Source: Candidatus Iainarchaeum sp. | Lineage (GTDB): Archaea > Iainarchaeota > Iainarchaeia > Iainarchaeales > VGJJ01 | DNA length: 64,000 nt | NCBI GenBank assembly: GCA_016198125.1 | Contig: JACQJG010000018.1 | Location: forward strand, 2,843-66,842 | Direction of reading: 5' to 3' | Part shown: one piece after another, positions 571-44,327 of the stretch | How positions within the stretch are numbered: position 1 is the first letter of the stretch | Layout of the letters: each line of letters opens with the position of its first letter | Notes under the pieces: generated by a model | What the model was told of the DNA's origin: nothing | Seen by the model: only the letters and a program-made list of their open reading frames with translations | Databases searched by the model: none | Position numbers and translations under genes: made by a program

Positions 571-635
571 GCAAAACTCCTTGGTAGTTTTACCCTGCAA
601 AACCCATTTAATGGGTGGGGGCTTGGCGTGGGACT

Positions 636-3769: not shown

Positions 3770-3770
3770 T

Positions 3771-4091: not shown

Positions 4092-4104
4092 TCTCTTCCC
4101 CTTT

Positions 4105-4701: not shown

Positions 4702-4801
4702 AACGCTTCCTCCCCTTGCGGGGCCGTCAAAGAGGGTTTTTACCCTTCTGCAGGTTGAAAACCCGATTGAAGTGGTTTAAAGGAATTCCCCTGCTAATGG
4801 T

Positions 4802-5125: not shown

Positions 5126-5138
5126 GTTTTTTCCTTTG

Positions 5139-11053: not shown

Positions 11054-13579
11054 TCATGATTGAGCAAGGACTTGGACTTCTTTTTGCAGGGCTTGAACCT
11101 TGTCTGTTTTTTCCCACGTGAATTCAGGTTCATTTCTTCCAAAGTGTCCATACGCTGCCGTTTTTTTGTAAATGGGCCTGCGCAGGTCAAGGGCTTCAAT
11201 GATTCCTTTGGGGGTTAAGGGAAATATGTTGCGCACGGCTTCGGATAAAACTTCTTCGCTTACCTTTCCAGTGCCAAACGCGTTCACGTATACACTTACC
11301 GGTTGTGCCACTCCAATGGCGTAAGCCAATTGTATTTCGCATTTATCCGCGAGCTTGGCCGCTACAATGTTTTTGGCAATGTAGCGCGCCATGTAGCACG
11401 CGCTGCGGTCCACTTTGTTGGGCTCTTTTCCGGAATTGTGGCAAACAAATCCGTTGGCCGTATAAGTGTGTGAAAATGGAATATTCAAATCATATGTATG
11501 GGAAAAAGAGGGTATTCTATTTTGTAGTTTCGAATAATAGTGCCCCATATAATAGAGTTCTTGAAGTTTGAGGAATTCTGGTTCATTTTTAAAAAATTCT
11601 TCATACGTTTCTGTGAATTCTTTCAATTTTTCATAGGTTAATTCTTTTGTAGCTTTGCCTTCATTGCTTCTTGTAAATCGTGCAATTTTACATTTATCCA
11701 ATTTCTGTTCTTTTAGTGGGAGCTTTTTGAATAGATGAATAATTCTGTTTCGTTGGTTTGGAATGATTAACCAATCTTTTTTTCCAATGGACTTTCCTTC
11801 TAATATTTTTTGCTTTCGTGAAAGTTTGAATCCAATGTTTTCTAAAAATAAGTTACCACCTTTGCTTCCTTTGATGGTTAAGTCGTAGCGGTCATGTTTG
11901 GAGTTAATCAGCCTTCCTTTTATGTAAGCGGGTTTTTTTCCAACTTTAACAGTTCTTAGCACAGAAATGATGCCAAAGTTAAGCAAAAGTAACTGAGTTT
12001 GCTCAGCTAACTTTTTGCTTGTGGTGGTCAAATGGATTCTCTTTGTGTTCTTATTTCGTCCATCGATTCGAATGCTGCCATCCGTATCAAATAATCCGCG
12101 TAAAAACGCGGCGCAATTATTTTTACTGGCATTAAATATGGCTGTTGGAACGACTTTTTCATACGATTTTGCGTAATTGAGGCCCAAATTTTTCAAATAC
12201 GCCCTAAGCTCTACTCCTCCAATATAGGCCCAATGACCATAAACGTTGCCTTTATCGTTAAAGAGCCTAAAGAATACGTTTTGAACAATCGTTTTCATTT
12301 CGTTTTCGCATACGCATATTTTGAGGTGTCCTTTATCTGTGCAATCTCCGTCGCCGACCGATAAGCCCAGTAAGTAAGCATAATCTTCAGTTAATTTCTT
12401 TGGAAAAATATATTTTTTCTTTCTTCCTTCCGCTGTTCCTTCCCTATATGCATATTTAAACTTTGGAATTTCGTTGTCGCCAAAGAATCGGTTTTTTGTT
12501 TGAATAGCGAGCCAGTCGTTAGATACGAGTTTTTCAACCGGTTTCCAAACATAGTTTCCTGCGGGGTCTATGACCCGTATATTGTGATTGGGGGTTGCTT
12601 CTAATGAATACCCGTCATACGTTTGAATGATCTCGGTTTGCTTAATTCCGTTATCATACCAGTCTCCTGCTGGCATGGGGTGTACATCTGTTTTTACAAG
12701 CAAACTGTTTTCTCCAACTCTTTTACATTCGTCAAGTTTGATTAACCCTTTTTCAGTGTTAACAAGTGAATCGCCTGCCAGGCAAAACGCGCCTCCTCCG
12801 TGGGGCGCGTACCCTCCATACGTGTCCACAATGATTTTTCTTCCGGTTAAACCCGAGTCTGCCACAGGGCCTCCAATTTCAAATTTTCCTGTAGGGTTTA
12901 CAAAAATTTTTGTTTGCCCATCCATCATATTCCCGCAAACGGGTTCAATGACCTTCTCAATAAGGGTGTTTCGGATTTCCTCATGGTTTAACCCTTTTCG
13001 GTGGTGGGCGCTGACTACAACAGTGTCAATGCGTTTGGGTTTCCCGTTTTCGTATTCAATGGTGACTTGGCTTTTGCCATCCGGGTAAAGCCATTCAATT
13101 TCACCGCTTTTGCGTGCATGGGATAGTTTTTGCGTGAGTTTGTGTGCGAGGGTAATGGGTAATGGCATTAATTCAGGGGTTTCATTGCATGCAAATCCAA
13201 ACATCATGCCCTGGTCTCCCGCCCCTTCTTCTTTGTGCAGGCCTTCTCCTTCGTTGACTCCTTGTGCAATGTCAGGGGATTGTTCGGACACGGAAATCAG
13301 AACGGCACACGTGTCCGCGTCAAAGCCCATGTCCGTGTGAGTGTATCCTATTTCACGGATTGTATCGCGCACTACTTTCTGGAAGTCGATTCTGGCTTTT
13401 GTGGTGAGCTCTCCTGCCACCATTACAAAACCCGTTTTAATCAGGGTTTCAATTCCTGTACGCGAATAAGGGTCTTGTTTCAACACTGCGTCTACAATGG
13501 CATCGGATATTTGGTCGCACGTTTTGTCCGGATGGCCTTCGGTTACGGATTCGGATGTGAAATAGTATTTTCCCCTCAT
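11054..13579 (-). CDS. metK: S-adenosylmethionine synthetase, bacterial/eukaryotic type (MetK), with an in-frame ~450-aa intein
   Basis: From M (cat 13577-13579): [33 protein letters not shown]... and the MetK signatures. The P-loop GGGAF|[11 protein letters not shown] is split by a Cys...HN insertion. The exteins total about 391 aa. The longer ORF to 13783 adds a non-conserved basic leader. Confidence 0.9.
11435..12784 (-). mobile_element. Intein (Hint domain plus LAGLIDADG homing endonuclease) inserted in the metK P-loop
   Basis: It begins with CLAGDSLV after GGGAF and ends with FVCHN, directly followed by S ([11 protein letters not shown]). Block B is TPNHNIRV. There are two LAGLIDADG-type motifs, [12 protein letters not shown] and [14 protein letters not shown]. 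Confidence 0.85.
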
Positions 13580-13851
13580 GTTTGTCACAGGATCACCTTG
13601 TAAGGATGAACGCTGGAATGTTTTTAAGTTGATTTTGGTGCATCCAACGTTTTGATTTTTTTTTATACCGGCGCGCAAAGGAATTTTTTTTCCAACCCGC
13701 ATTCGGCTCTTAGGAATCGAACGGGTTCTCTGCTTTGGCGTTTTTTTCCTTTTTCGCGTTGTTCTTTGGCGTGGGCCATTCAAATGGCCCGCGCGCGTTG
13801 GACGCGTGCTTTCAAGCGTGCGTTTTGCCGGGCTTTTGGATCAATGATTTG

Positions 13852-16025: not shown

Positions 16026-17426
16026 TTAACTTAATTTTCGGATGACCCCTTTTTCAGCATCCACTTCAATGCGTTCTCCGCTTTTAAGAATGGAGGTCGC
16101 GTTGTTGGTCCCGGTAATACATGCAATTCCGATTTCGCGGCTGACAATGGCCGCATGCGAGGTGATTCCTCCACGGTCTGTAATAATGGCTTTTGCTTTT
16201 TTCATTAAAGGAACAAAATCTGGAGTTGTTTCAGGGGCAACCAAAATGTCTCCTTCTTCGAAATGCTTAAAATCATCTGGTGAAATGATCACCTTTGCGG
16301 TTCCTTGTATAATTCCACCTTTGGAAGCAACCGTTCCTTTTAGTTCGCTGGCCTGAATTGTTTGCGTTCCAACTATTTCATTTAGTAATTCTTGAAGTTC
16401 TTCGCCTGAAAAAAGGTGTTCTGTTCCGCTTTCATCCAAGAAACTACCCCACTTGGGTTTTCGTTCGGGCAGTTTATTGGGAAGTTTTCTTCCTTGTTTT
16501 AAAAATGAAAGAATTTCTCGGCTGGAAAGATAGCAAAACTCTTCGTAGGTTAAACCGTTTTCTTTGGCGATTTCTTCCATTCTTGGACGGGACAAAAAAC
16601 GACTTTGGCGGTTACTTCGGCGCAGTGCGTCCGCCAAAACGATAAAACCGCCATCAAGCGAAAAAGGGGTAAGGTTTTTTTGGGTTTTGGAACTTTTTTT
16701 TGTGCAATCCTTCCTTTTTCAAGGATTTTTTGTATTTCTTCCAAGCATTTTTCCTCGGAATACGCTTCTCCGCCCCAATGGTGGGTTCCAAACCATTCAA
16801 ACGTATTCACGTGTTTTTTTATCGCTGTTGCAATGGATTTATTCTCTTTGACAAAATGAGCGGTTACATTGGATGGCTGAATTTTTGGAAAATTTTTTTG
16901 AATCAACCGCGCAATTTTTTTAACGCCAAACGATTGTTCTTCAAGCCAAGTTGGTTTTCGCAGTGCTTCAACTTGTCTAACAATTTCCTTTGAGTCAAGT
17001 GTTGGATACTTTTTGAAAATATATGCTTCCAGTTCATCTGCCAATTGAAGGCTTAGCCACCAAAAACCCGCCAAGTCTTGATAGGTGTCAAATAAAGCTT
17101 CCAAGTAATCGATTTTTCCGTATTTTTTCTTTAAAATATTCAAGTGCCTCTGCTTGGTTTCTGCACCTATTTCTTCAACTTTTTTTTATGAATTCTTTGA
17201 TGTGATTGTTGTTGTCCATTTCTTTTATGGCGTTTTTCATGGCTTCCTTGTCAGTCATCTTTGTCAGGCTGTTTCCGTCCAAAAACAGCATGGAGTTAAA
17301 ACGCACATTAGAAAAAGTGGTTTTCACGCTTTTAACCGTATTCCAAGGCGACCAAAAACAACCCGAAAGTACTGGTTGAACCCAGCGGCCATAATTAATC
17401 CATTCGTTTTTGTTGAAGCGAGGCAT
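16026..17426 (-). pseudogene. Degraded paralog of the 6190-7527 PEP-utilizer domain gene, in three ORF fragments
   Basis: Fragment 17175-17426 (MPRFNKNEW...) aligns with the N-terminus of the 445-aa paralog. Fragment 16550-17143 aligns with its middle (HWGGEAYS vs FGWYGLSLL). Fragment 16026-16637 carries the PEP-utilizer mobile domain (GDILVAPETTPDFVPLMKKAKAIITDRGGITSHAAIVSREIGIACI). The frame breaks coincide with a T8 run (17181-17188) and an A6 run (16594-16599). Confidence 0.55.
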
Positions 17427-19797: not shown

Positions 19798-20694
19798 ATG
19801 TCTTTTCACACGTGCATGCCTTCGGTGATGAAACCTGGGTGGTTGAAAATCCGTCCGCCGGATTTGAAACCGTTTGAGGAAACGCGTTCGGTTATTTCTT
19901 CTTTGAATTTGCACACGATTTGTGTGGAAGGCCATTGCCCCAATCAAAGCGAGTGCTGGTCCAATAAGACTGCGTCATTCATGGTGTTGGGGAAAACGTG
20001 CACGCGGGGATGCAAGTTTTGTGCAGTAAGCACTGCGTTGAAGGGCGATGTCCTTGATTCGCTGGAACCTGCGCGTTTGGGAGCGGCAGTAAAACGGTTG
20101 GGCTTGGAGTATGTGGTGATTACTTCCGTGGACCGCGATGACTTGGAAGACCAGGGGGCTGGACACATTGCACAGTGCATTCGTGAAGTGCGCCGCCAGT
20201 CTTCAAGCACGGTAGTGGAAGCATTGATCCCGGATTTTAGGGGCAGTGAAGAATGCCTGCAAACCGTGCTTCAATCCAACCCCCACGTGCTTTCCCATAA
20301 CCTTGAAACAGTAAAGCGCTTGCAGTCGTATGCCCGGGACCGCCGGGCTTCGTACGAGCAGTCTTTGGGGGTTTTAAAAAATGCAAAAAAACAGTGCCCA
20401 TCAATGTACACCAAGTCCGCGCTCATGTTGGGCTTGGGCGAAACGCAGGAGGAAGTAATACAGTCCATGAAAGACTTGCGGGTCATGAACGTGGATTTTT
20501 TGTCTTTGGGGCAATACTTGCGTCCTTCTGAATGGCATGTGCCTGTTCATGAATACGTGTCTCCGGATCAGTTCAAATGGTATGAAGAGAAGGGGTTTGA
20601 GTTGGGTTTCAAGTTTGTGGCCGCAGGGCCTTTTGTGCGTTCTTCTTATCGTGCAGGAGAATACTTTGTTGGCAACATGGTTTCGCGTGTTTGA
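19798..20694 (+). CDS. lipA: Lipoyl synthase
   Basis: WLKIRPP...CVEGHCPNQSECW plus the radical-SAM CTRGCKFC motif, and a conserved C-terminal RSSY. Confidence 0.85.
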   Translation: MSFHTCMPSVMKPGWLKIRPPDLKPFEETRSVISSLNLHTICVEGHCPNQSECWSNKTASFMVLGKTCTRGCKFCAVSTALKGDVLDSLEPARLGAAVKRLGLEYVVITSVDRDDLEDQGAGHIAQCIREVRRQSSSTVVEALIPDFRGSEECLQTVLQSNPHVLSHNLETVKRLQSYARDRRASYEQSLGVLKNAKKQCPSMYTKSALMLGLGETQEEVIQSMKDLRVMNVDFLSLGQYLRPSEWHVPVHEYVSPDQFKWYEEKGFELGFKFVAAGPFVRSSYRAGEYFVGNMVSRV

Positions 20695-20721
20695 GCGCAT
20701 TCTTTTAAATGCGTAAATGCT

Positions 20722-21936
20722 TTGGATGAGGGTATGCCTTTCAAGTCTGCTGCGTCGTTTGAAGTGAAATTCTTGCAAGTGTTAAATGAGAAGGGCGAAG
20801 TGGATTCAAAGTTGGAGCCCAGGATTTCTGGGGAGCGCTTGAAACAGTTTTATGAGTGGATGGTGCTTGCCCGTGTTTTTGATGAAAAGGCCATTGCCTT
20901 GCAGAGGCAGGGGCGCATTGGAACGTATGCTTCCGTAAGAGGCCAGGAGGCATGCCAGGTGGGTTCTGCGTGCCTGTTGAACGATTTGGATTGGGTGTTT
21001 CCTGCATTCAGGGAGAATGCCGCGCTCATTGTGCGCAAAACTCCGTTGAAAAATCTTTTGTTGTACTGGGGGGGCGATGAACGCGGCAGTGTTCCCCCGC
21101 TCGGAGTAAGGAATTTTCCGGTGGCCATTCCGGTTTCCTCGCAAATTCCTCATGCGGTTGGAGCAGCGTGGGCATGCAGGCTGCGCAATGAGAAAAATGT
21201 TTCATTGGTGTACTTTGGAGATGGAGCCACTTCAAGGGGCGATTTTCACGAGGCATTGAATTTTGCCGGCGTGTTCAAGATTCCAGTCATTTTCCTGTGC
21301 CAGAATAACCAGTACGCAATTTCGGTTCCGCGTTCAAGGCAATCGGCAGCGCAAACGCTGGCCCAAAAGGCGGTTGCGTATGGAATAGAGGGCATTCAAG
21401 TGGATGGAAATGACCTTCTTGCAGTGTATGTGAGTGTGCAGGAGGCCTTGGAGCGTGCGCGTGCAGGTAAAGGTCCAACGCTGATTGAGTGTTTTACGTA
21501 TCGTTTGGGGGATCATACCACTTCGGATGATGCCAAGCGCTACCGTACTGAAAGTGAAGTGGAGGAATGGAAGAAGAAGGACCCCCTTGCGCGTTTTGAA
21601 CTGTACTTGGCTTCCAAGAAGCTTTTTTCAAAGGAGTATCAGTCAGAGGTGTTGGAGCGTGCCCAGGCGTTGGTAGACCAGGCAGTACAGGAATACGAGT
21701 CTGTTCCGCTTCCTGCGGTAAGCGATTTGTTCAACTATGTTGCGGCACAATTGGATGCAAATGTTTCCATGCAAAAAGCCCGCTATTTGGAAGGGGTGGG
21801 CGCCCAGGATGTAGTACCTGTAACTCCGGTAGTTGCACCCCTCGTGAAAGGCCCAGCGAATCAATCTTCAAAGCCAGGCAAGAAGCGTGTTTCGCTTGAG
21901 GGATCTTCGAAGGCAGACGAGGTGCCGGACTTTTAG
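20722..21936 (+). CDS. pdhA: 2-oxoacid dehydrogenase E1 component alpha subunit (TPP-dependent)
   Basis: 404 aa with an E1-alpha TPP-binding fold, including YRLGDHTTSDD and GDGATSRGDFHEALNFA. Confidence 0.85.
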   Translation: MDEGMPFKSAASFEVKFLQVLNEKGEVDSKLEPRISGERLKQFYEWMVLARVFDEKAIALQRQGRIGTYASVRGQEACQVGSACLLNDLDWVFPAFRENAALIVRKTPLKNLLLYWGGDERGSVPPLGVRNFPVAIPVSSQIPHAVGAAWACRLRNEKNVSLVYFGDGATSRGDFHEALNFAGVFKIPVIFLCQNNQYAISVPRSRQSAAQTLAQKAVAYGIEGIQVDGNDLLAVYVSVQEALERARAGKGPTLIECFTYRLGDHTTSDDAKRYRTESEVEEWKKKDPLARFELYLASKKLFSKEYQSEVLERAQALVDQAVQEYESVPLPAVSDLFNYVAAQLDANVSMQKARYLEGVGAQDVVPVTPVVAPLVKGPANQSSKPGKKRVSLEGSSKADEVPDF

Positions 21937-21941
21937 GGGTT

Positions 21942-22925
21942 TTGCTTATGAGTGTCATGAACATGGTGCAGGCCATTAATGCAGCGTTGGGGCAGGAAAT
22001 GCAGGCGGATGCCCGTGTCATTGTGCTGGGAGAGGATGTTGGAAGGGATGGGGGCGTGTTCCGCGTTACAGAGGGATTGTTGGAAAAGTTTGGCGAGAAC
22101 AGGGTTATTGACACTCCGCTTTCAGAGTTGGGCATTGTGGGGGCTTCCATTGGCCTTGCAGTGAACGGCATGCGTCCAATTGCAGAAATTCAATTTGATG
22201 GTTTCACGTATGCAGGTTTGGACCAGCTCATTGACCATGCTTCAAGGATTCGCACGCGTTCCAGGGGCGCGTACTCTTGTCCGTTGGTAGTGCGTTTTCC
22301 CTGCGGGGGAGGCATTCACGCGCCCGAACATCATTCTGAATCTCCTGAAACATACTTTGTTCACACTCCTGGGTTGAAAGTGGTGTGCCCTTCCACTCCC
22401 GGCGATGCAAAAGGATTGCTTGCTTCTTGCGTTCAGGACCCGGACCCTTGTATTTTCATGGAACCCAAGCGCATTTACCGTGCCGTTAAAGAGGAAGTGA
22501 ACGAGGAGCGTTACACGATTCCTTTTGGAGTTGCAAAGGGCGTGCGCGAAGGAGAAGATGTTACATTAATTGCGTGGGGGGCCATGGTGCGCGAGTGCGT
22601 GAAAGCCGCAGACCAATTGGAAGCAGAACACGTTTCGTGTGAAGTATTGGATGTGCGCTCGCTTAAACCCTTGGACGTGAATGCCATTGTAAACAGCGTG
22701 AAGAAAACCGGCCGCGTGCTGGTGGTACATGAGGCTCCAAAAACCCTTGGGTTGGGCGCGGAAATTGTTGCACTCATCCAGGAACATGCATTTCTTTCCT
22801 TGGAAGCCCCGGTTGGGCGCGTGACAGGGTTTGACGTGGCCATGCCCTTGTACAAACTGGAAGAGGCCTACCTTCCCAATGTGAATCGCATTGTGGAAGG
22901 CGTGCGCAGAACGGTTTTGTTTTAA
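21942..22925 (+). CDS. pdhB: 2-oxoacid dehydrogenase E1 component beta subunit
   Basis: 327 aa with a transketolase-like pyrimidine-binding and C-terminal domain (VIVLGEDVGRDGGVFRVT, IDTPLSELGIVG). Confidence 0.85.
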   Translation: MLMSVMNMVQAINAALGQEMQADARVIVLGEDVGRDGGVFRVTEGLLEKFGENRVIDTPLSELGIVGASIGLAVNGMRPIAEIQFDGFTYAGLDQLIDHASRIRTRSRGAYSCPLVVRFPCGGGIHAPEHHSESPETYFVHTPGLKVVCPSTPGDAKGLLASCVQDPDPCIFMEPKRIYRAVKEEVNEERYTIPFGVAKGVREGEDVTLIAWGAMVRECVKAADQLEAEHVSCEVLDVRSLKPLDVNAIVNSVKKTGRVLVVHEAPKTLGLGAEIVALIQEHAFLSLEAPVGRVTGFDVAMPLYKLEEAYLPNVNRIVEGVRRTVLF

Positions 22926-22988
22926 TGCGCGCAGGCATTGGTTTTAAATGGATTGGGGGTGTTATTTTTTGGTTTTGAGGGACCGTGC

Positions 22989-23864
22989 ATGCGCGTGCAA
23001 ACCTTTTTAATTTTGTTTTTAATGGGAATCCTGCTTGCCCCTTTTGTGTTTGGCCATGAAACAGGCGAGGAGGAGCCTGTGGATGTTCACGCGGAAAACG
23101 TGCCCGTGGAAGCTTCTTTCACGGATTCCGCGCAGTTGGCTGAATTTCTTTCCGCTCAATCCTTGAATGTAGCTGGCATTGCAGCCCTTATCCTGTTGGG
23201 CGCGGTTGCATATGCCGTTCGCGTGCGCCCCCTTGGGGGGCATGCAAAGAAAATGCTTTTTTTAGTCATCCTGGTCACGTCCCTGTTGACCACTGCATAT
23301 TTGGCGGGTTCCACGCTGTACTTGAATGCCGCGTCCTTTACCCAGGGGCCCGTGCACTGGCACGCGGACTTTGAGGTGTGGAATTGCAGTGAAAAGTTGG
23401 ATTTGAAGGACCCTGAAGGGTTTTCCAACAAGGAAGGGGAAGAGCTCGTGCACGAGCATGGAGATGACCGCGTGCACGTGGAGGGCGCGTTGTTGGATGA
23501 AACCCAGGGCCAGCTTGGTTACTTTTTTAAGGCCGTGGGCGCTGAATGGAATGACGAAAGATTCGGGTATCCAACAAACCAGGGGGACGTGGTGCTTCCT
23601 GCAAAGGGAACGTGCAATGGGAGGCCCGCAGAACTCCAATTCTTCTTGTACCGCATTGTAAACCCGGGAAATGCAAGGCAATGGGTGTACAAGCAGTACA
23701 AGCTTTCCCCGCATGACGCGTATGAAACGGTCATGGCGCCTTATGGAAACGTTCCTCCAGGGGACTGCTTGATCGTTGAATTTGATGCTGTCAAGGAGCG
23801 TTCCGAACACGTGTGCTCGTCGTACGCGCATGCCATTCAAAGGGGGGAGTTAAATGGCCGTTGA
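22989..23864 (+). CDS. Membrane protein with a His/Cys-rich extracytoplasmic domain, embedded in the dehydrogenase cluster
   Basis: A signal-peptide-like start (MRVQTFLILFLMGILLAPFVFG) and two hydrophobic helices. A soluble domain follows with HWHADFEVWNC, EHGDDRVH and several Cys. The longer ORF begins at 22938. Confidence 0.45.
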   Translation: MRVQTFLILFLMGILLAPFVFGHETGEEEPVDVHAENVPVEASFTDSAQLAEFLSAQSLNVAGIAALILLGAVAYAVRVRPLGGHAKKMLFLVILVTSLLTTAYLAGSTLYLNAASFTQGPVHWHADFEVWNCSEKLDLKDPEGFSNKEGEELVHEHGDDRVHVEGALLDETQGQLGYFFKAVGAEWNDERFGYPTNQGDVVLPAKGTCNGRPAELQFFLYRIVNPGNARQWVYKQYKLSPHDAYETVMAPYGNVPPGDCLIVEFDAVKERSEHVCSSYAHAIQRGELNGR

Positions 23865-24564
23865 AGCGTATCTTCCCACCATTGCAACGGTTGTTGTAAC
23901 CGCGCTCATCGATTCCATTAACCCGTGCGCGATTGGCGTGCTCATCCTCATGATCTCCATCCTCCTTGGAAAGCGCAAGTCCATGCACGACATGCTCTTA
24001 TACGGGGGGCTGTACATTTTCGCGGTTTTCCTGACCTACCTGCTGGCAGGCATTGGCCTTACATACGCGTTGAGCACCATTCCATTGTTTGTAACCGAGT
24101 ACTTGTCCATTGGGGTGGGGCTGCTCATTGTTTTTGCCGGCCTGTTGGAGGTAAAGGATTTTTTCTGGTATGGAAAAGGCTTTTCCCTGCAAATCCCTGC
24201 AAGGTTTGCAGCCAAGATCGACCGGTACGCGCAGAACGTGACCATTCCCGGGGTCATTTTGGTGGGCATGTTCGTGGCAGCCGTGGAATTGCCGTGCACG
24301 GGCGCCCCTTATCTTGCAATCATAACGTTGCTGTCCCAGTACTTTGACTTTACCGCGCTCTTGTTATTGGTCTTGTACAACGTCATATTCGTTTTGCCGC
24401 TCATATTCATTTTGCTGGCCGTGGCCGCGGGGAAAAGACTTTCAACGTTCAAGAAGTGGAAGCAGGATAATCGGGGAACGATGCGCTTGTTTATCGGGTT
24501 GATGTTGATTGGCATGGGGTGGTTGTTGATGTTGATTGCCAACGGAACCATTAACTTTGGGTGA
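23854..24564 (+). CDS. ccdA: CcdA/DsbD-family thiol-disulfide transporter (cytochrome c biogenesis transmembrane protein)
   Basis: Six predicted TM segments. The two conserved cysteines sit in INPCAIGVL (TM1) and ELPCTGAPY (TM4), typical of DsbD-beta/CcdA. Confidence 0.75.
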   Translation: MAVEAYLPTIATVVVTALIDSINPCAIGVLILMISILLGKRKSMHDMLLYGGLYIFAVFLTYLLAGIGLTYALSTIPLFVTEYLSIGVGLLIVFAGLLEVKDFFWYGKGFSLQIPARFAAKIDRYAQNVTIPGVILVGMFVAAVELPCTGAPYLAIITLLSQYFDFTALLLLVLYNVIFVLPLIFILLAVAAGKRLSTFKKWKQDNRGTMRLFIGLMLIGMGWLLMLIANGTINFG

Positions 24565-24578
24565 GGCGTTAAAACAGC

Positions 24579-24920
24579 ATGCAGGAAAAAAAAGGCCGTA
24601 AAAAGGGGCAGGTGCGAATGCCCGCCCGCGCACGCGGTGCAGGGAATGTGAACGTGCACATCGTTAAACGCAAAGGCCATTTGGAAAGGTTTGATGAACG
24701 CAAGGTGTATGCTTCCTGTTATGAAGCGTGCCTTTCCGCGCAAATCCCCAATTCCACAGCTGAACACATTTGCGGGCTTGCCTCGGACGACGTTAAAAAG
24801 TGGGTGTTGACCCAGCGCCAAGTGAATTCACACCAAATTTTCCTGCGCGTAGCAGAATTCTTGCGCAAACACCACAAGGATGTGGCGTTCATGTATGAAA
24901 CCCACCGCGACGTTTCATGA
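24579..24920 (+). CDS. ATP-cone domain protein
   Basis: VHIVKRKGHLERFDERKVYASCYEA matches the ATP-cone start (V-x-KRDG-x-x-E-x-FD). The gene ends 4 nt inside the E2 gene start. The true start may be the internal M (24618). Confidence 0.55.
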   Translation: MQEKKGRKKGQVRMPARARGAGNVNVHIVKRKGHLERFDERKVYASCYEACLSAQIPNSTAEHICGLASDDVKKWVLTQRQVNSHQIFLRVAEFLRKHHKDVAFMYETHRDVS

Positions 24921-26293
24921 AAACAGGGATGGTCATGGCATTGGATTTCAAATTCCCGGATGTAGGGGAAGGGATTACGGAAGGCGAGCTTATTCGCTGG
25001 CTGGTGCGTGAAGGCGATTCTGTAAAACAAGACCAGCCCTTGGCCGAAGTTGAAACCGACAAAGCGGTGGTTGAGATTCCTTCTCCGCGTGCAGGCACTG
25101 TACTCAAATTGTATTTCAAGGAAGGCCAAACCGTTAAAGTGGGTGAAGTAATGATAACCATTGGAGAGAAAGGTGAAAGCGTTTCAAGTGTGCCTGCCAA
25201 AGAAAAGCCTGCACAGCCTTCTCTGGAGTCCAAGCCCAATACGTCTTCCGTGGTGGGGGTTCTTGAAGAAGCTGCAGAACCTGTTCCTGTGCAAAAGCGT
25301 TCCGGAGTCTTTCCAGGGGCTATTCCTGCGTCTCCCAAGCCAGGCGGGTTGCCCGTGCTTGCGGCTCCATCCACGCGTCGTATGGCCAGAGAGTTTGGAG
25401 TGGATATTTCAAAGGTGCGCGGTTCTGGAGAGCAGGGGCGCGTGCTGGAAGAAGATGTGGTGCGCGCTTCCCACACCCAGCAGGCAGTAAAAGACTTGCA
25501 CGCCCAAGTCAAAGCAGTTTCATCAGAGGAATCCTTTTCGCGCATTCCGCTTTCAAAGGCCGCGTATGCAGAAGGCGAGGCCCTTGAGCGCGTGCCTGTG
25601 AAAGGCATTCGAAAGGCCACGTGGAAGCACATGGCGGAGGCTTTTACTCACACGGTGCCGGTCACTCACATGGACGAAGCCGATGTCACTGCATTATGGG
25701 ACGTGCGCGAAAAGGAAAAAATTCTCACACAAGAAAAAGGAATTAAGCTTACGTTCCTGCCGTTCATTGTTAAATCTGTTGTGGCCGCGTTAAAGGAACA
25801 CCCGTATTTGAATGCTTCATTGGATGAAGAGGCAAGCGAAATTGTGTTGAAAAAGTTTTATCATATTGGAATGGCCGTGGATGCAGGCGAAGGATTGCTC
25901 GTTCCGGTGATCCGAAACGCGGACAAGAAAAGCATTCTGCAAATCGCCAGGGAAATGAATGCATTGGCTGAAAAAGCAAAAAGCCGTTCGCTGGACTTGA
26001 GTGAACTCAAAGGTGGCACGTTCACTCTCACCAATGTGGGTTCTATTGGCGGTCAATTTGCAACGCCTGTCATTAATTTTCCTGAAGCCGCCATTTTGGC
26101 TACCGGGCGCATTTACGAAAAGCCGGTCGTTGAAAAGGGTTTTTTGTCCCATAAGGTTTTGGTGCGCAAGGTCCTGCCGCTTTCCCTGACATTTGATCAC
26201 CGCATTCTGGACGGAGCAGAAGCCGCACGCTTTACCAATGACATAATCAAGCGCCTTGAAGACCCGGATTTGTTGCTGGTGGAAATGGAGTAG
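24917..26293 (+). CDS. pdhC: Dihydrolipoamide acyltransferase (E2) of a 2-oxoacid dehydrogenase complex
   Basis: N-terminal lipoyl domain (EVETDKAVVEIPSP), an E3/E1-binding segment, and a C-terminal catalytic domain with DHRILDGAEAARF. Confidence 0.85.
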   Translation: MKTGMVMALDFKFPDVGEGITEGELIRWLVREGDSVKQDQPLAEVETDKAVVEIPSPRAGTVLKLYFKEGQTVKVGEVMITIGEKGESVSSVPAKEKPAQPSLESKPNTSSVVGVLEEAAEPVPVQKRSGVFPGAIPASPKPGGLPVLAAPSTRRMAREFGVDISKVRGSGEQGRVLEEDVVRASHTQQAVKDLHAQVKAVSSEESFSRIPLSKAAYAEGEALERVPVKGIRKATWKHMAEAFTHTVPVTHMDEADVTALWDVREKEKILTQEKGIKLTFLPFIVKSVVAALKEHPYLNASLDEEASEIVLKKFYHIGMAVDAGEGLLVPVIRNADKKSILQIAREMNALAEKAKSRSLDLSELKGGTFTLTNVGSIGGQFATPVINFPEAAILATGRIYEKPVVEKGFLSHKVLVRKVLPLSLTFDHRILDGAEAARFTNDIIKRLEDPDLLLVEME

Positions 26294-26299
26294 TTTTTC

Positions 26300-27040
26300 A
26301 TGCCGGTTTTTGGAAAAGGCCGTGTCCGAAGGCCAAAGTTCTATGGAAAACCCGAACTTGAAGGGGTAAAGATTGAACTCTACAGGGAAAGCGTAAAGGC
26401 CGGCGCGGCTTCTGGCAGAAGGTACAGGCGAAGCAGAGGGTACAAGTATGAGATCACTCCCTTGTCGGGGGTTGAAAGATTCCTGCATTTCAATGTCACA
26501 CACTGGGTTTTAAAACGCTACAAGAAGGTAAAACGTCCTGTGAACGTGCTTGACTGGGGGTGCGGCCAAGGCACAGCTATCACTGAGTTGGTGAAAAGGC
26601 TTCCAAGCAAGGTTAACGCGTACGGGTATTCAAAAGATTTTTACCCTTCGTGGACTGAAAACCCGCATGTTAAATTCATCCAGGAAACCCACGACCAAGT
26701 GCCGAGGTTTTTTAAAAAAATTCCATTGGATCTTATCCTTTCGCTTGCAGGCCTGCACCATTTGCAGGCAAGCATGAGCCGCGGGGTTTCTCTTGCCGTG
26801 ATAGAGAATAGAAGGAGATGGTTGAAGGAATACAAAAAATACATTTTGAGGCTTGCAGAGCGGCTGGCTCCCGGGGGTGTGCTGGTGACAAGTTTTATTG
26901 GCCTGCCCAGCCATGTGGACGAATTCGCGTCTTCGTTCAATCCCAAAAAAGACAGGGTTCGGGCACGCGTCTTGCATTGTTCTTATTATCCAGGCGCCCC
27001 TGCGGGCGTGGACAATATTTTCATGCTTGAAAAGATTTAA
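26300..27040 (+). CDS. Class I SAM-dependent methyltransferase
   Basis: Motif I is VLDWGCGQGTAITELV. Confidence 0.55.
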   Translation: MPVFGKGRVRRPKFYGKPELEGVKIELYRESVKAGAASGRRYRRSRGYKYEITPLSGVERFLHFNVTHWVLKRYKKVKRPVNVLDWGCGQGTAITELVKRLPSKVNAYGYSKDFYPSWTENPHVKFIQETHDQVPRFFKKIPLDLILSLAGLHHLQASMSRGVSLAVIENRRRWLKEYKKYILRLAERLAPGGVLVTSFIGLPSHVDEFASSFNPKKDRVRARVLHCSYYPGAPAGVDNIFMLEKI

Positions 27041-27057
27041 ATTTTTTTTTGAAAGCA

Positions 27058-27816
27058 TTACCGCATCCAATTCCATTCCTTGGTGCAATAGCGTTGGCTT
27101 ACCAGTACATGGGCATCGTCCAATTCCGCGTTGGACCATTTTCCAAATGAGTAGAATTTGCCCTGCGTGAATCCTTTCAACAGTGCGTGTGCAACGTCTT
27201 CCCGGCTTACCTTTTTGTGGTCTAAGATGCGTGTTACGCGTTCTTCCACGCTTTGAATCATTTTGTCGCTTATTTTTTCCTTGCTCACTTTGAGCACGGA
27301 AAACATTTTTCTTACATCCAAATCGTACAAGATGGTTCCGTGTTGGGTGAGGATTCCGTTTCTCCTTGTTTGCGCGTTCCCGCTTATTTTTTTTCCATTC
27401 AAGGTAATGTCATTTATGGGTTTGAATTCTGCATGCAACCCCAGTTCTTTTAACCCGTTGGTAATCCACCCGCAAATCAAATGATAGGATTCTGTAATGC
27501 CTTTTGGAAAGTATTGTTCCGGGGCAATGACACTGTACGTGACTTCTCCTTCATAGTCGTGGTATACGGCTCCTCCGCCGGTCCTGCGCCGGACAAGGTC
27601 TATTCCAAGTTCCTTGCATTGTTCCACGTTGACTTCTTCTTCCATGCTTTGAAAGTATCCGATTGAAACTGCGCTGGGCTTCCACCGGTAAAACCGAATG
27701 GTCGGGTTCGCGTCTCCGTCTGTAAGGCTTTGCGCGCACGCCTCATCCAATGCCATGTTCAGGTACGCATCATGTTCTTCCAAGGGTATGACGCGCCATT
27801 CAGGGGTTTTGTCCAT
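27058..27816 (-). CDS. lplA: Lipoate-protein ligase A, catalytic subunit (LplA N-terminal domain)
   Basis: 252 aa with the BPL/LPL catalytic domain (RRTGGGAVYHD, the lipoyl-AMP-binding K in GKKISGNAQ). Confidence 0.85.
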   Translation of the reverse strand: MDKTPEWRVIPLEEHDAYLNMALDEACAQSLTDGDANPTIRFYRWKPSAVSIGYFQSMEEEVNVEQCKELGIDLVRRRTGGGAVYHDYEGEVTYSVIAPEQYFPKGITESYHLICGWITNGLKELGLHAEFKPINDITLNGKKISGNAQTRRNGILTQHGTILYDLDVRKMFSVLKVSKEKISDKMIQSVEERVTRILDHKKVSREDVAHALLKGFTQGKFYSFGKWSNAELDDAHVLVSQRYCTKEWNWMR

Positions 27817-28111
27817 TTCCCTTCCTCCCGTTTTCCACGGCCATTTGTACTGCGCGTGCCAGGCTTTCCGCGTCCACTCCCACCAATTCCATTTGGTTTA
27901 ACAGCACTGCGCGTTGAATGGCTTTTTCAAGTTCTCCGCTTGTTGAATTGGCTTTGAGTCCGTTCAATGCCTGTTCGATGTTGGCAATGCCTTCTTCCGG
28001 GTGCATGAAAAAATCGCCTGTGATTTGCACGCGTTCCAACCGCTCCACAAAGTCAACGCGCGCTTTGACCAGTTTTCCGTTTGGCACTTTGAGTACGCTG
28101 GCGCCTTGCAT
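27800..28111 (-). CDS. lplB: Lipoate-protein ligase accessory subunit (LplA C-terminal domain, LplB-like)
   Basis: 103 aa lying immediately downstream of lplA with a 17-nt overlap. It resembles the separate LplA C-terminal domain encoded as LplB in Thermoplasma. Confidence 0.55.
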   Translation of the reverse strand: MQGASVLKVPNGKLVKARVDFVERLERVQITGDFFMHPEEGIANIEQALNGLKANSTSGELEKAIQRAVLLNQMELVGVDAESLARAVQMAVENGRKGNGQNP

Positions 28112-36537: not shown

Positions 36538-37035
36538 TTAAGCGTTTTTTGGGTTTTGAATGGAAACCACTACCAGGGGTTCGTTAAGCGTTGGGGTGTG
36601 CGTTTTGTGGGCGTGGGCCAGTTGTTCTTCTGCTACTTCGAGTTTGCGCAGTTCGACTCCAATTTGATGGAATTGAAGGGTTGCCATGAGCGTTAGAACC
36701 GTGCCTCCAAGGATGAATGCCACTTCCACAAGGGTGTAGTACACATGGGCGGATTCAATGAATTTGAGTAAGGTGAATCCTGTGGCGAACAAGCCCAACC
36801 CAATGCCGATTATGTTTAATTGGACGCGTTGGTGGGCCAACAGCGTGCGCTGCTTGGCCAGGGTGGTGCGTTGGTCTACCGAGTAATCTTCCGGGTCAAA
36901 TGCATTCATGCGTGGGCCTATTACGCGTTCAATGTATTTTAATCTTTCAGCAGGCCTTTCCGCTTCCATCGGATTACCTTTAAAGCGTGGTTTGTTCTCT
37001 TGTAGAGTATGGAATTGGATGGTTGGATTGCCCAT
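36538..37035 (-). CDS. DUF202 (YidH-like) membrane protein
   Basis: ERTTLAKQRTLLAHQR plus two or three TM helices. The start may be the internal MEAERP. Confidence 0.5.
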   Translation of the reverse strand: MGNPTIQFHTLQENKPRFKGNPMEAERPAERLKYIERVIGPRMNAFDPEDYSVDQRTTLAKQRTLLAHQRVQLNIIGIGLGLFATGFTLLKFIESAHVYYTLVEVAFILGGTVLTLMATLQFHQIGVELRKLEVAEEQLAHAHKTHTPTLNEPLVVVSIQNPKNA

Positions 37036-38103
37036 GCCGTGGAGCGTTTAAAGGATTCGGATGCGCGCTTGCGGGAACTTTCAATGCACGTGGGTAAAGT
37101 CTCCCGCACGGGTTTAAGGGCCTTAAACAGCCCGTTTGTATTGGAGGACGCGCTTATTCAAGCAGTGCCATCCGTGTCCTTTACAGGCAAAGTGGCTGGA
37201 GTTGACTCCGGTTTTTTGGACCGTGCACTGTACGTGTTGGACATCCTGCTGGTCAAGTCTGTGGGCGTGGTGTTTGAGTACCAGGGCAATCGTTTGGTGA
37301 AATCCGTGTACTACCCGCGTTTTTTTCAGTTTCCAAAACCCGAGGTGAGCGCGGAGGGCTTGGAACGGGATGAGGTGCACTGCAGTGTTTCGCTCACGCG
37401 TTTGCGCGAGGAAGTGCGCGTGGCCAGGGAAATCATTGAACGCCATTCTCCCCAATTTCTTTTCCTGGATGGTTCTCTGGTGCCCCAGTTCATGGACAAG
37501 CCGGGGAAGGATTCCAAGGTAAAAGTATTCTACCATGAAGTGTTGAACGACTTTCAACTGTTATTTCAAACCGCATTCGATCATGAGTGCACGCTGGTGG
37601 GCGCCGTTGAGGACTCCCGGGGAAACCGTTTTCGGGCGCTGATGGAAGAAACCATTTTTCCAGGTCTTGGCGTTCATGCGGATTTGGGTTCGTGCAAGGA
37701 TGCAAGCCTATTGGAATATGTGCTCAGTCCAGGAGAGCGCACGCTTGCATTTTCTTATGCCCAGGACGTTTCCAAGCACCCTGTACTTGCGGACATGAAT
37801 GAGAAATGGGCGCGCGCCCTGCATGCCCTGTATGTGAAGCCTTCAGCATACGACCGGCCATTGCGGGTGGAATTCCTTTGCCATGATTTAACTCAAATGC
37901 CTGCGTGCGCCGGCGAAGTGGCGGGGATTGCGCTGAACCAGTCTTCACTGCACAAGGAATACGCGTTTCCTGCAGTGTTGATTGAAGCGGATTTGCGTGC
38001 CAGGCTGAAACCGGAGGAAGTGGACTGGGTGTTTGAGCGCATCATGCAAAAACTTGGGCGTAAAAACTTTTGGCTGCAGCGCAGGGATAAGAGGCCGTTT
38101 TAG
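37009..38103 (+). CDS. nurA: NurA 5'-3' nuclease
   Basis: 364 aa with the NurA-domain acidic motifs GVDSGF, FLDGSL and AVEDSRGNRF. Confidence 0.75.
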   Translation: MELDGWIAHAVERLKDSDARLRELSMHVGKVSRTGLRALNSPFVLEDALIQAVPSVSFTGKVAGVDSGFLDRALYVLDILLVKSVGVVFEYQGNRLVKSVYYPRFFQFPKPEVSAEGLERDEVHCSVSLTRLREEVRVAREIIERHSPQFLFLDGSLVPQFMDKPGKDSKVKVFYHEVLNDFQLLFQTAFDHECTLVGAVEDSRGNRFRALMEETIFPGLGVHADLGSCKDASLLEYVLSPGERTLAFSYAQDVSKHPVLADMNEKWARALHALYVKPSAYDRPLRVEFLCHDLTQMPACAGEVAGIALNQSSLHKEYAFPAVLIEADLRARLKPEEVDWVFERIMQKLGRKNFWLQRRDKRPF

Positions 38104-38149
38104 CCAAAAAGTTAAATATTACTGGGGTAATACTATTAATGGTGGTTTT

Positions 38150-38335
38150 ATGGAGACAGTGCCGGCTAAGATAACTCCAAAGCTTGTGCAGGAAATGGAT
38201 GACTTGGTCAAAGATGGGTGGTATGCCTCGCGCAGCGAAGTCATCAGGGATGGCGTTCGGGAGCTTGTTAAAAAGCTTCGAAGTGAACGCATTATGCGCG
38301 CAATCAAAGAGGATGTGGAATGGGGCCTAAAGTGA
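38150..38335 (+). CDS. Ribbon-helix-helix (CopG/Arc-type) antitoxin-like protein
   Basis: From the internal M: METVPAKITPKLVQEMDDLVKDGWYASRSEVIRDGVRELV, an RHH pattern. It overlaps the PIN gene start by 16 nt. Confidence 0.5.
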   Translation: METVPAKITPKLVQEMDDLVKDGWYASRSEVIRDGVRELVKKLRSERIMRAIKEDVEWGLK

Positions 38336-38793
38336 GGGCAGTCATTGACGCAGGTCCTATTATTCACTTGCGCGAGTTGGGCCTTCTCAGAGCCTTTAAT
38401 CCGTTTGAGCTTTTTACAGTTCCACTGGTTTTTAATGAAGTTAAAGTCCTGCCTTCTTTCATTTCAGTTGAAGCTGCGTTTGATGGAATGAAAGCCGATC
38501 TTATTGCCGCAGAGTGCGGGCTGGGTTTGGCGGAAAGCCAGTGCATGGCTTTGGCCAAGAAAAAGGAAATTTTGTTGTTTTTGACAGATGACCTGGACGC
38601 GCGTACAACAGCGGAGGCTTTGGGATTGGAACCCCACGGAACAATTGGAATTTTGTTGAAAGCATATCGCAAAGGCCTTTTTTCGCGTAAAGAAGTTGTG
38701 AGGCATATTCAAAGTATTCCACGAAAATCCACCCTGTATATTACACAGGAAATTATAGAGTATGTTGTCCGTGAGATCAAGCGTAAGAGGTAA
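38320..38793 (+). CDS. PIN-domain protein (toxin-like nucleic-acid-binding protein)
   Basis: AVIDAGPIIHL (N-terminal Asp) and FLTDDLDARTTAEALG with further acidic residues, consistent with PIN. Confidence 0.55.
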   Translation: MGPKVRAVIDAGPIIHLRELGLLRAFNPFELFTVPLVFNEVKVLPSFISVEAAFDGMKADLIAAECGLGLAESQCMALAKKKEILLFLTDDLDARTTAEALGLEPHGTIGILLKAYRKGLFSRKEVVRHIQSIPRKSTLYITQEIIEYVVREIKRKR

Positions 38794-38800
38794 TGTTGAA

Positions 38801-39010
38801 ATGAAACCGTTTCCAAAGCCAAATCCAAAATCAAAGCAAGAACCTGAATATCCTTCCAGGCACGTGCGCGTGTGCCCTCAATGCGGTTCTATGCATGTTA
38901 AAGAGTACATGGGGGGCGTGTTGGGCCAAAAGTTTCAGTGCATGGAATGCGGGTACATTGGCCCGGTATTGGAATCTTTGAAGGGTTTTTTTAGGGAAGG
39001 GAAAAAGTGA
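38801..39010 (+). CDS. Small zinc-ribbon protein
   Basis: CPQCGS...CMECGY four-Cys ribbon. The start is chosen at MKPFPKP. Confidence 0.35.
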   Translation: MKPFPKPNPKSKQEPEYPSRHVRVCPQCGSMHVKEYMGGVLGQKFQCMECGYIGPVLESLKGFFREGKK

Positions 39011-39019
39011 GGGCGTGCA

Positions 39020-39904
39020 ATGCCGGTCGTTGAATGCTTGGATGTTGGGGGCACGCACACCCGGTATGCGTTGATTGAAAATGAAAAGGTGCTGGTCAAA
39101 GAACGTGTTGAAACACGCTGTGAAAACGCGCAGGGTTTGCTGGACTTCATTCAGGAAGTGTGCGTGCGCAACCGTTCGCGCGCAGGCGTTTCTGGAGTGA
39201 ATGTTTCATGTGCGGTGCTTCCAGGGCCTGTCCGGAAAGGAGTGTTGCTGAACGCGCCTCCCTTGGGTTTGCAGTACCCGCTTGATTTTTCCTGTTTGGA
39301 AGGCGTGCTGGGCAATGCAGTGATAATTGAGAATGACTTGAATGCAGCCGTGCGCACGGAATTAGAGAAAGGGGTTGGAAGAACCGTGGATTCGTTTTAC
39401 CTGTTGGCGTTGAGTACAGGGATTGGTGCGGGGATTGTGTTGAATGGAAAGGCTGTGAAAGGTCTGGCCGGGGAGTTTGGGCACTGTGTGTTGGACGCGT
39501 CCTCCAATGCCTTTTTGTGTGCGTGCACGCGCAGGGGGTGTTGGAGCGCGTACAGCAGCGGGAAAGGGCTTGAAATGCAGGCACGCGCGAATGGCTTTGA
39601 ATGGAGTGCCAGCGGGGTGTTTGATCATGCCTTGAACGGCCATGAAATTGCGTGTGAAATTGTAAAGCGTGCGCGTGCGTTCAATGCGCGTGGATTGGGG
39701 GTTATGGTGAATGCCTTGGAAGTGCAGGCCATTGTGGTGATGGGTTCCCTGGGCTTGAACCGGTTTAAGGAAGTTGTTCCGCTCCCTGGGGAAGTGGGTT
39801 GTTTTACCGTTAATCCAGTGCCGCGCATCGTAAAAACAGCGTTGGCCGACGACCTGGGATGGGAGGGCGCGTATTTTCTTGGAATGGACTTTCTTGACAG
39901 GTAA
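39020..39904 (+). CDS. ROK-family sugar kinase (glucokinase-like)
   Basis: LDVGGTHTRYAL, LALSTGIGAGIVLNG, GEFGHC and a CxCxxxGC zinc motif. Confidence 0.7.
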   Translation: MPVVECLDVGGTHTRYALIENEKVLVKERVETRCENAQGLLDFIQEVCVRNRSRAGVSGVNVSCAVLPGPVRKGVLLNAPPLGLQYPLDFSCLEGVLGNAVIIENDLNAAVRTELEKGVGRTVDSFYLLALSTGIGAGIVLNGKAVKGLAGEFGHCVLDASSNAFLCACTRRGCWSAYSSGKGLEMQARANGFEWSASGVFDHALNGHEIACEIVKRARAFNARGLGVMVNALEVQAIVVMGSLGLNRFKEVVPLPGEVGCFTVNPVPRIVKTALADDLGWEGAYFLGMDFLDR

Positions 39905-39941
39905 GGGGAAACATGCAAACGTTAAAATGCTTTAACATTCA

Positions 39942-41504: not shown

Positions 41505-41673
41505 CTCGGCCTTTTTGGGAAAAAGGCCTGCGAAAAGCCTTTTTGCTTTGGCAAAAAGCCTTGGGAAAAAAGCGGGATATTGTGTTGCAATACCCCTCTA
41601 ATATCAACACCCTTCAAGGCGCGCTTTCCTCAATGAAGACACCCCTGCCTTTAGTCGGGGGGGGATGTCCTTT

Positions 41674-42048
41674 TTATTTTGTAGTAAGGTACGCGATTGG
41701 AATGAGCCCAAGCACGGCGCCTCCTAGAAGGATAAGCAATGCGCTCAGAAGCACAAAGCCAATGCTTTTGAGGTCGTTAAATCTTTTTTTTGCCTTTAGG
41801 ATTATTGTGCCAAGGGCGATGACAAAAATCGCGGCCACTCCCGCACCATACCGCGTGCCTGTTTGAAATGCGTTTTCGAAGTTTTCCAGGGGGGTGAATG
41901 CCCCCAGCACGCCCCCAACGACTCCCCCTGCAAGAGCCACGAGTACCAGATATGCAAAATAGAACCCAACTCCTTGCACGGGCGTTCTTTTTAATTTGAA
42001 TGTTGTAAGCCCGTAAAACATTCCCTGACCGGCTTTTTTCCTGACCAT
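41674..42048 (-). CDS. Small membrane protein (3-4 TM)
   Basis: 124 aa, highly hydrophobic (GFYFAYLVLVALAGGVVGGVLGAF, VAAIFVIALGTIIL). Confidence 0.4.
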   Translation of the reverse strand: MVRKKAGQGMFYGLTTFKLKRTPVQGVGFYFAYLVLVALAGGVVGGVLGAFTPLENFENAFQTGTRYGAGVAAIFVIALGTIILKAKKRFNDLKSIGFVLLSALLILLGGAVLGLIPIAYLTTK

Positions 42049-42079
42049 GGCTGAAATACAATGCCCGGCTTATTAACCT

Positions 42080-43681: not shown

Positions 43682-43795
43682 AGAATGCCTTTTTAAAGCT
43701 TTTGGGGGCTGTTTTCTTTTACGTTTTTGGAATCCTTTTTTTGGGTTTATTAGTGATTGCATTCTTGGAATGTAAGGGAAAGGAGTTTTTTTGAC

Positions 43796-44002: not shown

Positions 44003-44003
44003 G

Positions 44004-44306: not shown

Positions 44307-44327
44307 TTCTTTTTCAGGGTCTTTTTA

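Follow-up and report, generated by a model that had tools for sequence, protein, structure and literature searches.

The 64-kb window (the whole stretch of DNA analysed, 64,000 nucleotides of contig JACQJG010000018.1 from Candidatus Iainarchaeum sp.) contains a lipoylation and pyruvate dehydrogenase (PDH) gene cluster with three further genes between E1 beta and E2. These encode a membrane protein (below, X), a CcdA/GAP-like protein with six transmembrane (TM) helices, and a stand-alone ATP-cone protein, and are referred to together as the cassette. All ten genes reported here by a first-pass annotation of the DNA are recovered at the coordinates of Table 1 by open reading frame (ORF), Pfam, and NCBIfam checks. 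The plus strand carries, in this order, lipA, E1 alpha, E1 beta, X, the CcdA-like gene, the ATP-cone gene, E2, and a methyltransferase gene, all tightly packed; lplA and lplB are on the minus strand, convergent to this run. Its gene assignments are essentially correct, and the close packing of the genes on one strand and the rarity of their arrangement, both pointed out by that annotation, hold.

The translation of lipA, the first gene of the run, contains the CX4CX5C, CX3CX2C, and RSSY motifs, and that of E1 alpha the thiamine-diphosphate motif GDG...NN. E2 consists of a lipoyl, a peripheral-subunit (E3) binding, and a catalytic domain, all three passing the Pfam thresholds, with the motifs TDKA (lipoyl-lysine) and DHRILDG. 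The methyltransferase gene directly after E2 takes the slot held by E3 in the related operon L087, described below. The spacer between E1 beta and X contains a TATA-like TTTTAAAT (22943-22950), a run of six T, and GAGGG before ATG 22989, and is possibly an internal archaeal promoter with a Shine–Dalgarno sequence, brought along by the cassette. The TGA stop codon of the ATP-cone gene overlaps the start of E2, as described earlier, if E2 begins at ATG 24917; E2 may start instead at the in-frame ATG 24929 or 24935 (MALDFKFPDVGEG), and the overlap is then lost. Since the plus-strand genes are packed so tightly, the cassette and E2 are very likely co-transcribed.

Table 1. Genes and spacers of the window, and genes for class-I flavoprotein disulfide reductases (FDR) that adjoin the cassette in bacterial loci (in coordinates of those loci)
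Feature	Position	Strand	Evidence or remark
lipA, lipoyl synthase	19798..20694	+	NCBIfam PRK05481 381.8 bits, TIGR00510 361 bits (cutoff 310); both pass
E1 alpha, pyruvate-type	20722..21936	+	Pfam E1_dh 304.6 bits; TIGR03181 PDH_E1_alph_x 469 bits (cutoff 411)
E1 beta	21942..22925	+	Transket_pyr and Transketolase_C; NF006667 322 bits (cutoff 321)
E1 beta–X spacer, 63 nt	22926..22988	+	only sizeable gap in the plus-strand run
X	22989..23864	+	291 aa; no Pfam or NCBIfam match
CcdA/GAP-like 6-TM protein, LysE/DsbD superfamily	23854..24564	+	Pfam SfLAP/GAP PF11139 40.7 bits
ATP-cone protein	24618..24920 (longest ORF from 24579)	+	Pfam PF03477 27.0 bits, cutoff 25.8
E2, dihydrolipoyl acyltransferase	24917..26293	+	Pfam Biotin_lipoyl 86, E3_binding 52.6, 2-oxoacid_dh 281.6 bits
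Class I S-adenosylmethionine-dependent methyltransferase	26300..27040	+	weak Methyltransf_23/25/11 matches
lplA, large subunit of split lipoate-protein ligase	27058..27816	-	LplA-B_cat 201 bits; NF053750 231 bits
lplB, small subunit of lipoate-protein ligase	27800..28111	-	NF053749 LplB 70.5 bits (cutoff 65)
Empty spacer, 65 nt, between ftsY (636-1691) and srp54 (1-570)	571..635	-	ancestral cassette site of related Iainarchaeia
FDR, locus L036	3090-4460
FDR, locus L070	11718-13091
FDR, locus L072	5221-6591
FDR, locus L081	11653-13023
FDR, locus L083	2718-4169
FDR, locus L078	11708-end

With one genome taken per species, a scan with X gave relatives in 365 stretches; the best 80 of these, together with contexts from exact-protein look-ups, form the set of 84 independent loci used below. 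At least 365 species-level genomes, from DPANN archaea and from bacteria of the candidate phyla radiation (CPR), carry the cassette. X is directly followed by the CcdA-like gene in all 84 loci, with a median overlap of 4 nt (11 nt in the window), and the next ORF encodes the ATP-cone protein in 57 of the 75 loci with enough downstream DNA (49/63 archaeal, 8/12 bacterial). X, the CcdA-like gene, and the ATP-cone gene form an autonomous cassette, conserved in DPANN archaea and CPR bacteria, of which the ATP-cone is a frequent third member. Compared with the window proteins, the CcdA-like protein is 52-79% identical (bacterial copies 62-67%), X 38-52%, and the ATP-cone protein 28-59%. A PDH gene is found within 10 kb of the cassette in one locus of the 84 (L041), where E2 lies 4 kb away on the other strand, with genes for an ADP-forming acyl-CoA synthetase and adenylosuccinate lyase between; the association of the cassette with the PDH operon is unique to this lineage. 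A functional coupling of the three genes to the lipoamide complex, as initially proposed, finds no support in this pattern of mutual adjacency throughout and PDH next door in essentially no locus. The more general suggestion of metal or redox handling linked to the complex is fair for the cassette itself, and the comparison offers no evidence of the link. The titles "uncultured Methanosarcinales archaeon" and "Gammaproteobacteria bacterium" of the metagenome-assembled genomes (MAGs) with loci L016, L028, L031, L035, L036, L064, L070, L072, L075, and L078 are probably wrong, since the cassette, its neighbours, and the similarity look DPANN or CPR.

At least 15 Iainarchaeia loci have the cassette in the interval from ftsY to srp54 (these include L005, L007, L009-L015, L018, L019, L022, L023, L033, L088, and L089). 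The block reads S19e, dsDNA-binding protein, L31e, eIF6, prefoldin, FtsY, [X, CcdA-like, ATP-cone], SRP54, prepilin peptidase, epimerase. The same housekeeping block, identified by tblastn with that of L089, occupies positions 1-4701 of the window on the minus strand, and here the spacer between ftsY and srp54 is empty; likewise, in L090, an independent assembly of the same organism, FtsY is directly followed by SRP54, with no cassette between them. The CcdA-like protein of the window is closest (76-79%) to homologues of the ftsY–srp54 clade, the divergence of the cassette is on par with that of the flanking housekeeping proteins (45-57%), and its GC content and codon usage are not anomalous. 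Because the slot that holds the cassette in close relatives is empty here, the arrangement is best explained by a lineage-specific, intragenomic move of the cassette from the ftsY–srp54 slot into the PDH operon. The first-pass annotation had tied its functional link to the placement of the three genes in close relatives; there they are placed differently, between ftsY and srp54, which speaks against that link. A recent foreign insertion was also considered and rejected, as the composition is normal and the divergence equals that of the flanking housekeeping genes.

The absence of a dihydrolipoamide dehydrogenase (E3) gene from the window, noted earlier, is borne out by three kinds of search. 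The class-I FDR motif CxNxGCxP is found in no frame of the 64 kb, no Pyr_redox protein is present among the window ORFs of 400-600 aa, and tblastn with E. coli LpdA reaches no better than E = 7 in the window. The probe works, since the same query detects E3/FDR genes in other fetched loci. An E3 gene is also absent from the 3.4 kb to the left of the window, as seen in L090, so that the negative result covers about 67 kb, the genome as a whole being roughly 1 Mb. Most likely, the gene for the E3 of this complex lies in another part of the genome; the E3-binding domain of E2 is retained.

L087, the one relative that the E2 query retrieved in a metagenome scan, has an uninterrupted E1a-E1b-E2-E3 operon, where the E2 ORF begins 12 nt past the end of the E1b ORF; identity to the window proteins is 46% for E1a, 56% for E1b, and 39% for E2. 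Similar to the Thermoplasma-type and Gram-positive-type E1 alpha/beta–E2–E3 operons, the window has E1 alpha, E1 beta, and E2 with lipoyl, peripheral-subunit binding, and catalytic domains, with lipoylation genes alongside, and L087 retains the canonical gene order; the window differs by the three unrelated genes between E1 beta and E2 and by having no E3 after E2. PDH homologues are widespread in DPANN, according to one review (PMC6349945). A literature search on DPANN or CPR with ATP-cone or CcdA, and on PDH or E3 of Diapherotrites, gave nothing specific to the cassette.

Protein X most likely starts at ATG 22989, not at TTG 22938, and the resulting 291-aa product is the form on record. It comprises a signal peptide ending in conserved Ala-His (a conserved His sits at the predicted cleavage site), an acidic stretch, and two TM helices joined by a basic loop, and has a beta-rich ectodomain of about 175 residues (AlphaFold2 model with pLDDT 86.5), which, by the positive-inside rule, must face outward. 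Invariant residues in the alignment (A1) are H123, W124, H125, D127, E129, W131, C133, H155, H157, D159, R161, H163, E165, C209, C260 in the motif PPGDC, and C276; that is, five invariant His, invariant Asp and Glu, and four invariant extracytoplasmic Cys. The initial description of X as a membrane protein with an extracytoplasmic His/Cys-rich domain is accurate, and the search with profile models assigned it to no Pfam or NCBIfam family. Its 528 homologues in the protein collection all belong to DPANN or CPR and are all unannotated. A Pfam scan of 36 homologues gave spurious matches in the TM regions only, the X profile matched PDB sequences at chance level only, and fold searches with full-length and domain-only models found no solved analogue (best Foldseek E 0.7, TM-score <=0.31). 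Neither the alignment nor the model shows CxxC, Cx5C, a thioredoxin fold, or a DsbD-alpha-like fold. In tblastn against plasmids, the X ectodomain and a short paralogue had no match.

This paralogue of the X domain (207 aa, with a C2H2 zinc finger, a TM helix, and HWHAD...HTHDDQRIHVEG) is encoded in locus L003, in an operon (3159-5979, minus strand) that also contains DsbA, two membrane proteins of 151 and 160 aa with intramembrane CxxC, a cupredoxin, and a multicopper oxidase. The operon is divergent from a full cassette, and a second copy of the cassette occupies the ftsY–srp54 slot of this MAG (L010).

The match of the CcdA-like protein to SfLAP (PF11139) is full-length, 40.7 bits against a gathering score of 35, and is shared by 21 of 22 homologues. 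DsbD_TM is matched by 8 of the 22 (best E 1.7e-8); the window protein itself has no DsbD_TM match at E<=0.01, and its matches to NCBIfam ArsG and DsbD (18.6 bits) are weak. The homologues carry the JGI name CcdA and are always 236 aa long. The motifs IDSINPC25AIG in TM1 and VELPC148TGAPY in TM4 are invariant in the 22 archaeal and bacterial sequences, and acidic residues stand next to both Cys; such residues are presumably not present in B. subtilis CcdA. An hhalign comparison to this CcdA aligns the PCTG region, TM4-6 only, with probability 59% and E of about 1e-4, and the CcdA-like profile has chance-level matches only among PDB sequences. Of the earlier assignment to the CcdA/DsbD type with both Cys, the cysteines stand, as invariant residues of the TM1 and TM4 PC motifs; the best Pfam family is SfLAP/GAP, not DsbD_TM.

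Similar to the CcdA, DsbD, and ScsB transporters (CcdA-ResA, CcdA-StoA, and ScsB-ScsC), the cassette protein has six TM helices, with one essential-looking PC-motif Cys in each of TM1 and TM4, and is encoded beside a dedicated extracytoplasmic partner. It differs from them in its best Pfam family, in the acidic residues flanking the Cys, in a partner that is not of thioredoxin fold and has no CxxC, and in the ATP-cone protein as a regular third component; furthermore, the host groups of the cassette are reportedly devoid of electron-transport chains. No ccm or res genes are near the cassette in the 84 loci, and MmpL or glycolipid export genes, the context of GAP/SfLAP, are absent from the window and from the neighbour clusters of these loci. 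With metal exporters of the LysE superfamily (MntP, TerC, NicO/RcnA, CadD, UPF0016/GDT1) the protein shares a small 3+3 TM architecture and a polar motif repeated in TM1 and TM4, and the cassette also adjoins other cation transporters; it differs in having no significant match to any of these families and in the Cys motifs that replace Asp/Glu/His. Pairing with an extracytoplasmic protein rich in metal ligands would fit a metalation role, by analogy with the TerC-type metalation of secreted enzymes. Generally, GAP and DsbD are sister families of the LysE superfamily, most members of which export metal ions or amino acids, and the DsbD family has documented roles in resistance to copper and mercury (PMC4608589).

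The search with profile models upholds the ATP-cone assignment of the third gene, and its homologues are annotated with the same Pfam family. The form called by NCBI has 100 aa, and the family ranges over about 89-100 aa. Residues K17, R18, H21, F25, D26, K29, and Y31 are invariant (alignment A3); the family motifs are VKR-G-H..FD..K and, at the C-terminus, the family-specific FMYETHRD(I/V)S. The NrdR model TIGR00244 scores 19.9 bits against a cutoff of 124.65 and covers the cone part only, the family alignment contains no zinc ribbon (CxxC...CxxC), and no ribonucleotide reductase (RNR) is present in the neighbourhoods examined. The cassette cone thus shares with NrdR and the N-terminal cones of RNR the domain itself and its conserved N-terminal VKR-G-H...FD..K motif, and differs in being short and stand-alone, with neither zinc ribbon nor RNR neighbour, in its own C-terminal motif, and in being always encoded after the membrane-protein pair. 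A redox CxxxC was considered for this protein and rejected, as only C38 is near-invariant.

Clustering of neighbouring genes across the 84 loci reveals a P-type ATPase immediately beside the cassette in 16-17 loci of archaea and bacteria (L006, L036, L047, L050, L056, L060, L068-L070, L072, L076, L078-L081, and L083). It occurs in three orientations (upstream on the same strand, upstream divergent, and downstream convergent), carries the PEGLP and NLVTDGLPA motifs, and has PMR1-type and SERCA-type Ca ATPases as the best models. CorA is directly upstream of the cassette in nine loci, along with a Na/H exchanger and a CBS protein, and farther off in two more; MgtE is found in six loci, and an MgtC/DUF4010 protein follows the cassette in L036 and L072. 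In all, 27 of the 84 loci have cation-transport neighbours; those of redox type are less frequent (FDR in 6, DsbA-like genes within 10 kb in 8).

The FDR gene directly follows the CcdA-like gene in six CPR loci, five of which have no ATP-cone, the gene order being MgtE, P-type ATPase, X, CcdA-like, (ATP-cone), FDR, MgtC. These reductases contain Pyr_redox_2 and a dimerisation domain, the CPNFAC motif, and a C-terminus ...IACS with a single Cys, and remain below the cutoffs of all models, e.g., dihydrolipoyl dehydrogenase (374 bits, cutoff 408.8) and MerA TIGR02053 (356 bits, cutoff 454). The succession of X, the CcdA-like protein with its TM Cys, and the FDR resembles that of binder, transporter, and reductase in the mer (MerT/MerP/MerA) and rclABC operons. 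The differences are that the CPR reductase has neither an NmerA domain nor a C-terminal CC pair and is below the MerA and RclA cutoffs, and that the window has no FDR.

On balance, we consider that the locus is probably an ordinary lipoylation and PDH operon of Diapherotrites/Iainarchaeia, into which an autonomous three-gene envelope cassette for divalent-metal handling has been relocated. In this mechanism, the 6-TM protein of the LysE/DsbD superfamily would pass a divalent, probably thiophilic, metal ion (or, less likely, reducing equivalents) across the membrane, along pseudo-symmetric sites of TM1 and TM4 formed by D20, N23, and C25, and by E145 and C148. The His/Asp/Glu/Cys-rich ectodomain of the membrane-anchored X would be the recipient or donor of the metal, and the cytoplasmic ATP-cone protein would bind adenine nucleotides and tune transport to the ATP/dATP status. 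A metal module is favoured because cation-transport neighbours outnumber redox-type ones and because X has no CxxC-type motif; the invariant His, Asp, and Glu of X, the operon with its paralogue beside DsbA, cupredoxin, and multicopper oxidase, and the many metal exporters of the LysE superfamily also suggest a link to metals. More safely, the cassette appears to be an uncharacterised envelope system of the CcdA/GAP (LysE-superfamily) kind, presumably ATP-cone-regulated and common to DPANN and CPR.

Several points weigh against this interpretation. The neighbour counts of the 84 loci are not phylogenetically independent, and the nine CorA loci represent one clade. The adjacent pumps are of the Ca/Mn/Mg type rather than soft-metal P1B, which is awkward to combine with Cys ligands. 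The chemistry of X is guessed from its conserved residues, with neither a Pfam family nor a solved analogue as a guide. The PC motifs, the DsbD_TM matches, and the six Lpd/MerA-like reductases of CPR fit an electron relay about as well. Regarding the operon itself, the coupling of the ATP-cone stop to the E2 start indicates stable expression, so some selected benefit of the new position may exist, and an E3 elsewhere in the genome is assumed, none being present in the 67 kb.

An electron relay to X is the close rival, and may be combined with metal handling if the relay reduces the bound metal. Here, the cassette would be a CcdA-type transmembrane shuttle of reductant, unconnected to PDH, in which cytoplasmic thioredoxin, or a dedicated FDR in some CPR bacteria, reduces Cys25/Cys148, and electrons proceed to the ectodomain cysteines of X or to a redox-active metal, e.g., Cu(II). 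We regard such a shuttle as rather unlikely. The invariant Cys are positioned in TM1 and TM4 PC motifs as in CcdA/DsbD, and the DsbD_TM matches, the alignment of the PCTG region to B. subtilis CcdA, and the name CcdA agree with this, whereas the best family is GAP/SfLAP and the acidic residues flanking both Cys presumably set the protein apart from B. subtilis CcdA. Four invariant extracytoplasmic Cys in X could accept electrons, and an X paralogue does occur with DsbA, cupredoxin, and multicopper oxidase; however, X lacks CxxC and Cx5C as well as a thioredoxin or Ig-like DsbD-alpha fold, and the spacing of its four Cys is that of structural disulfides. The reductase directly downstream in CPR and the DsbA-like genes favour the relay, and are outnumbered by the cation-transport neighbours.

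A bypass of E3, with dihydrolipoyl-E2 re-oxidised via the CcdA-like protein to X outside the cell and the complex made independent of E3, is quite improbable. In its favour are the lack of E3 in the window and leftward of it, the methyltransferase in the post-E2 slot that L087 gives to E3, and the embedding of the cassette between E1 beta and E2 with the stop/start overlap. In mycobacteria, the Lpd-DlaT-AhpD-AhpC system uses lipoyl-E2 as its thiol relay, and the cassette meets Lpd-like or E2 genes in two other lineages, as the CPR reductase matches dihydrolipoyl dehydrogenase best and E2 is near the cassette in L041. However, only 1 of the 84 loci has the embedding, and close relatives hold the cassette between ftsY and srp54. 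E2 retains a good E3_binding domain, the DNA covered is a small part of the genome and E3 genes are often unlinked, X has no evident terminal electron acceptor, and the CPR reductase scores nearly as well for MerA and passes no cutoff. That the ATP-cone protein, through translational coupling to E2, gives the PDH complex allosteric control by nucleotides, also an earlier suggestion, is very unlikely, even though ATP-cones are nucleotide-sensing modules and the stop/start overlap would fit, because the same family accompanies the membrane pair in the 57 of 75 loci, which are PDH-free, its closest relatives belong to the ftsY–srp54 cassette, and the overlap itself may vanish with a later E2 start.

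With the cassette read as a relocated envelope unit, the odd operon reflects a lineage-specific relocation rather than new lipoamide biochemistry, which is deflationary for the PDH question. The cassette becomes a defined piece of the "dark matter" common to ultra-small DPANN archaea and CPR bacteria and, if the proposed role of its third member is true, exemplifies an ATP-cone acting outside the control of ribonucleotide reductase.

Among other features, the window, which is of DPANN origin, contains genes for an archaeal CCA-adding enzyme, DnaG, ABCE1, ELP3, HerA/NurA/Rad50, and eRF1. The mobile domain of phosphoenolpyruvate (PEP) utilizers is present in two proteins (6190-7527 and 16026-16637, both on the minus strand), on neither of which other domains of PEP synthase or pyruvate phosphate dikinase were detected. 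The DNA-end-resection cluster NurA, HerA, Rad50 (37009-46694) has a ROK-family sugar kinase gene (39020-39904) between NurA and HerA. An S-adenosylmethionine synthetase of bacterial/eukaryotic type (S-AdoMet_synt N/M/C; 11054-13783, minus strand), 909 aa in all, is split by an intein that includes a LAGLIDADG homing endonuclease.

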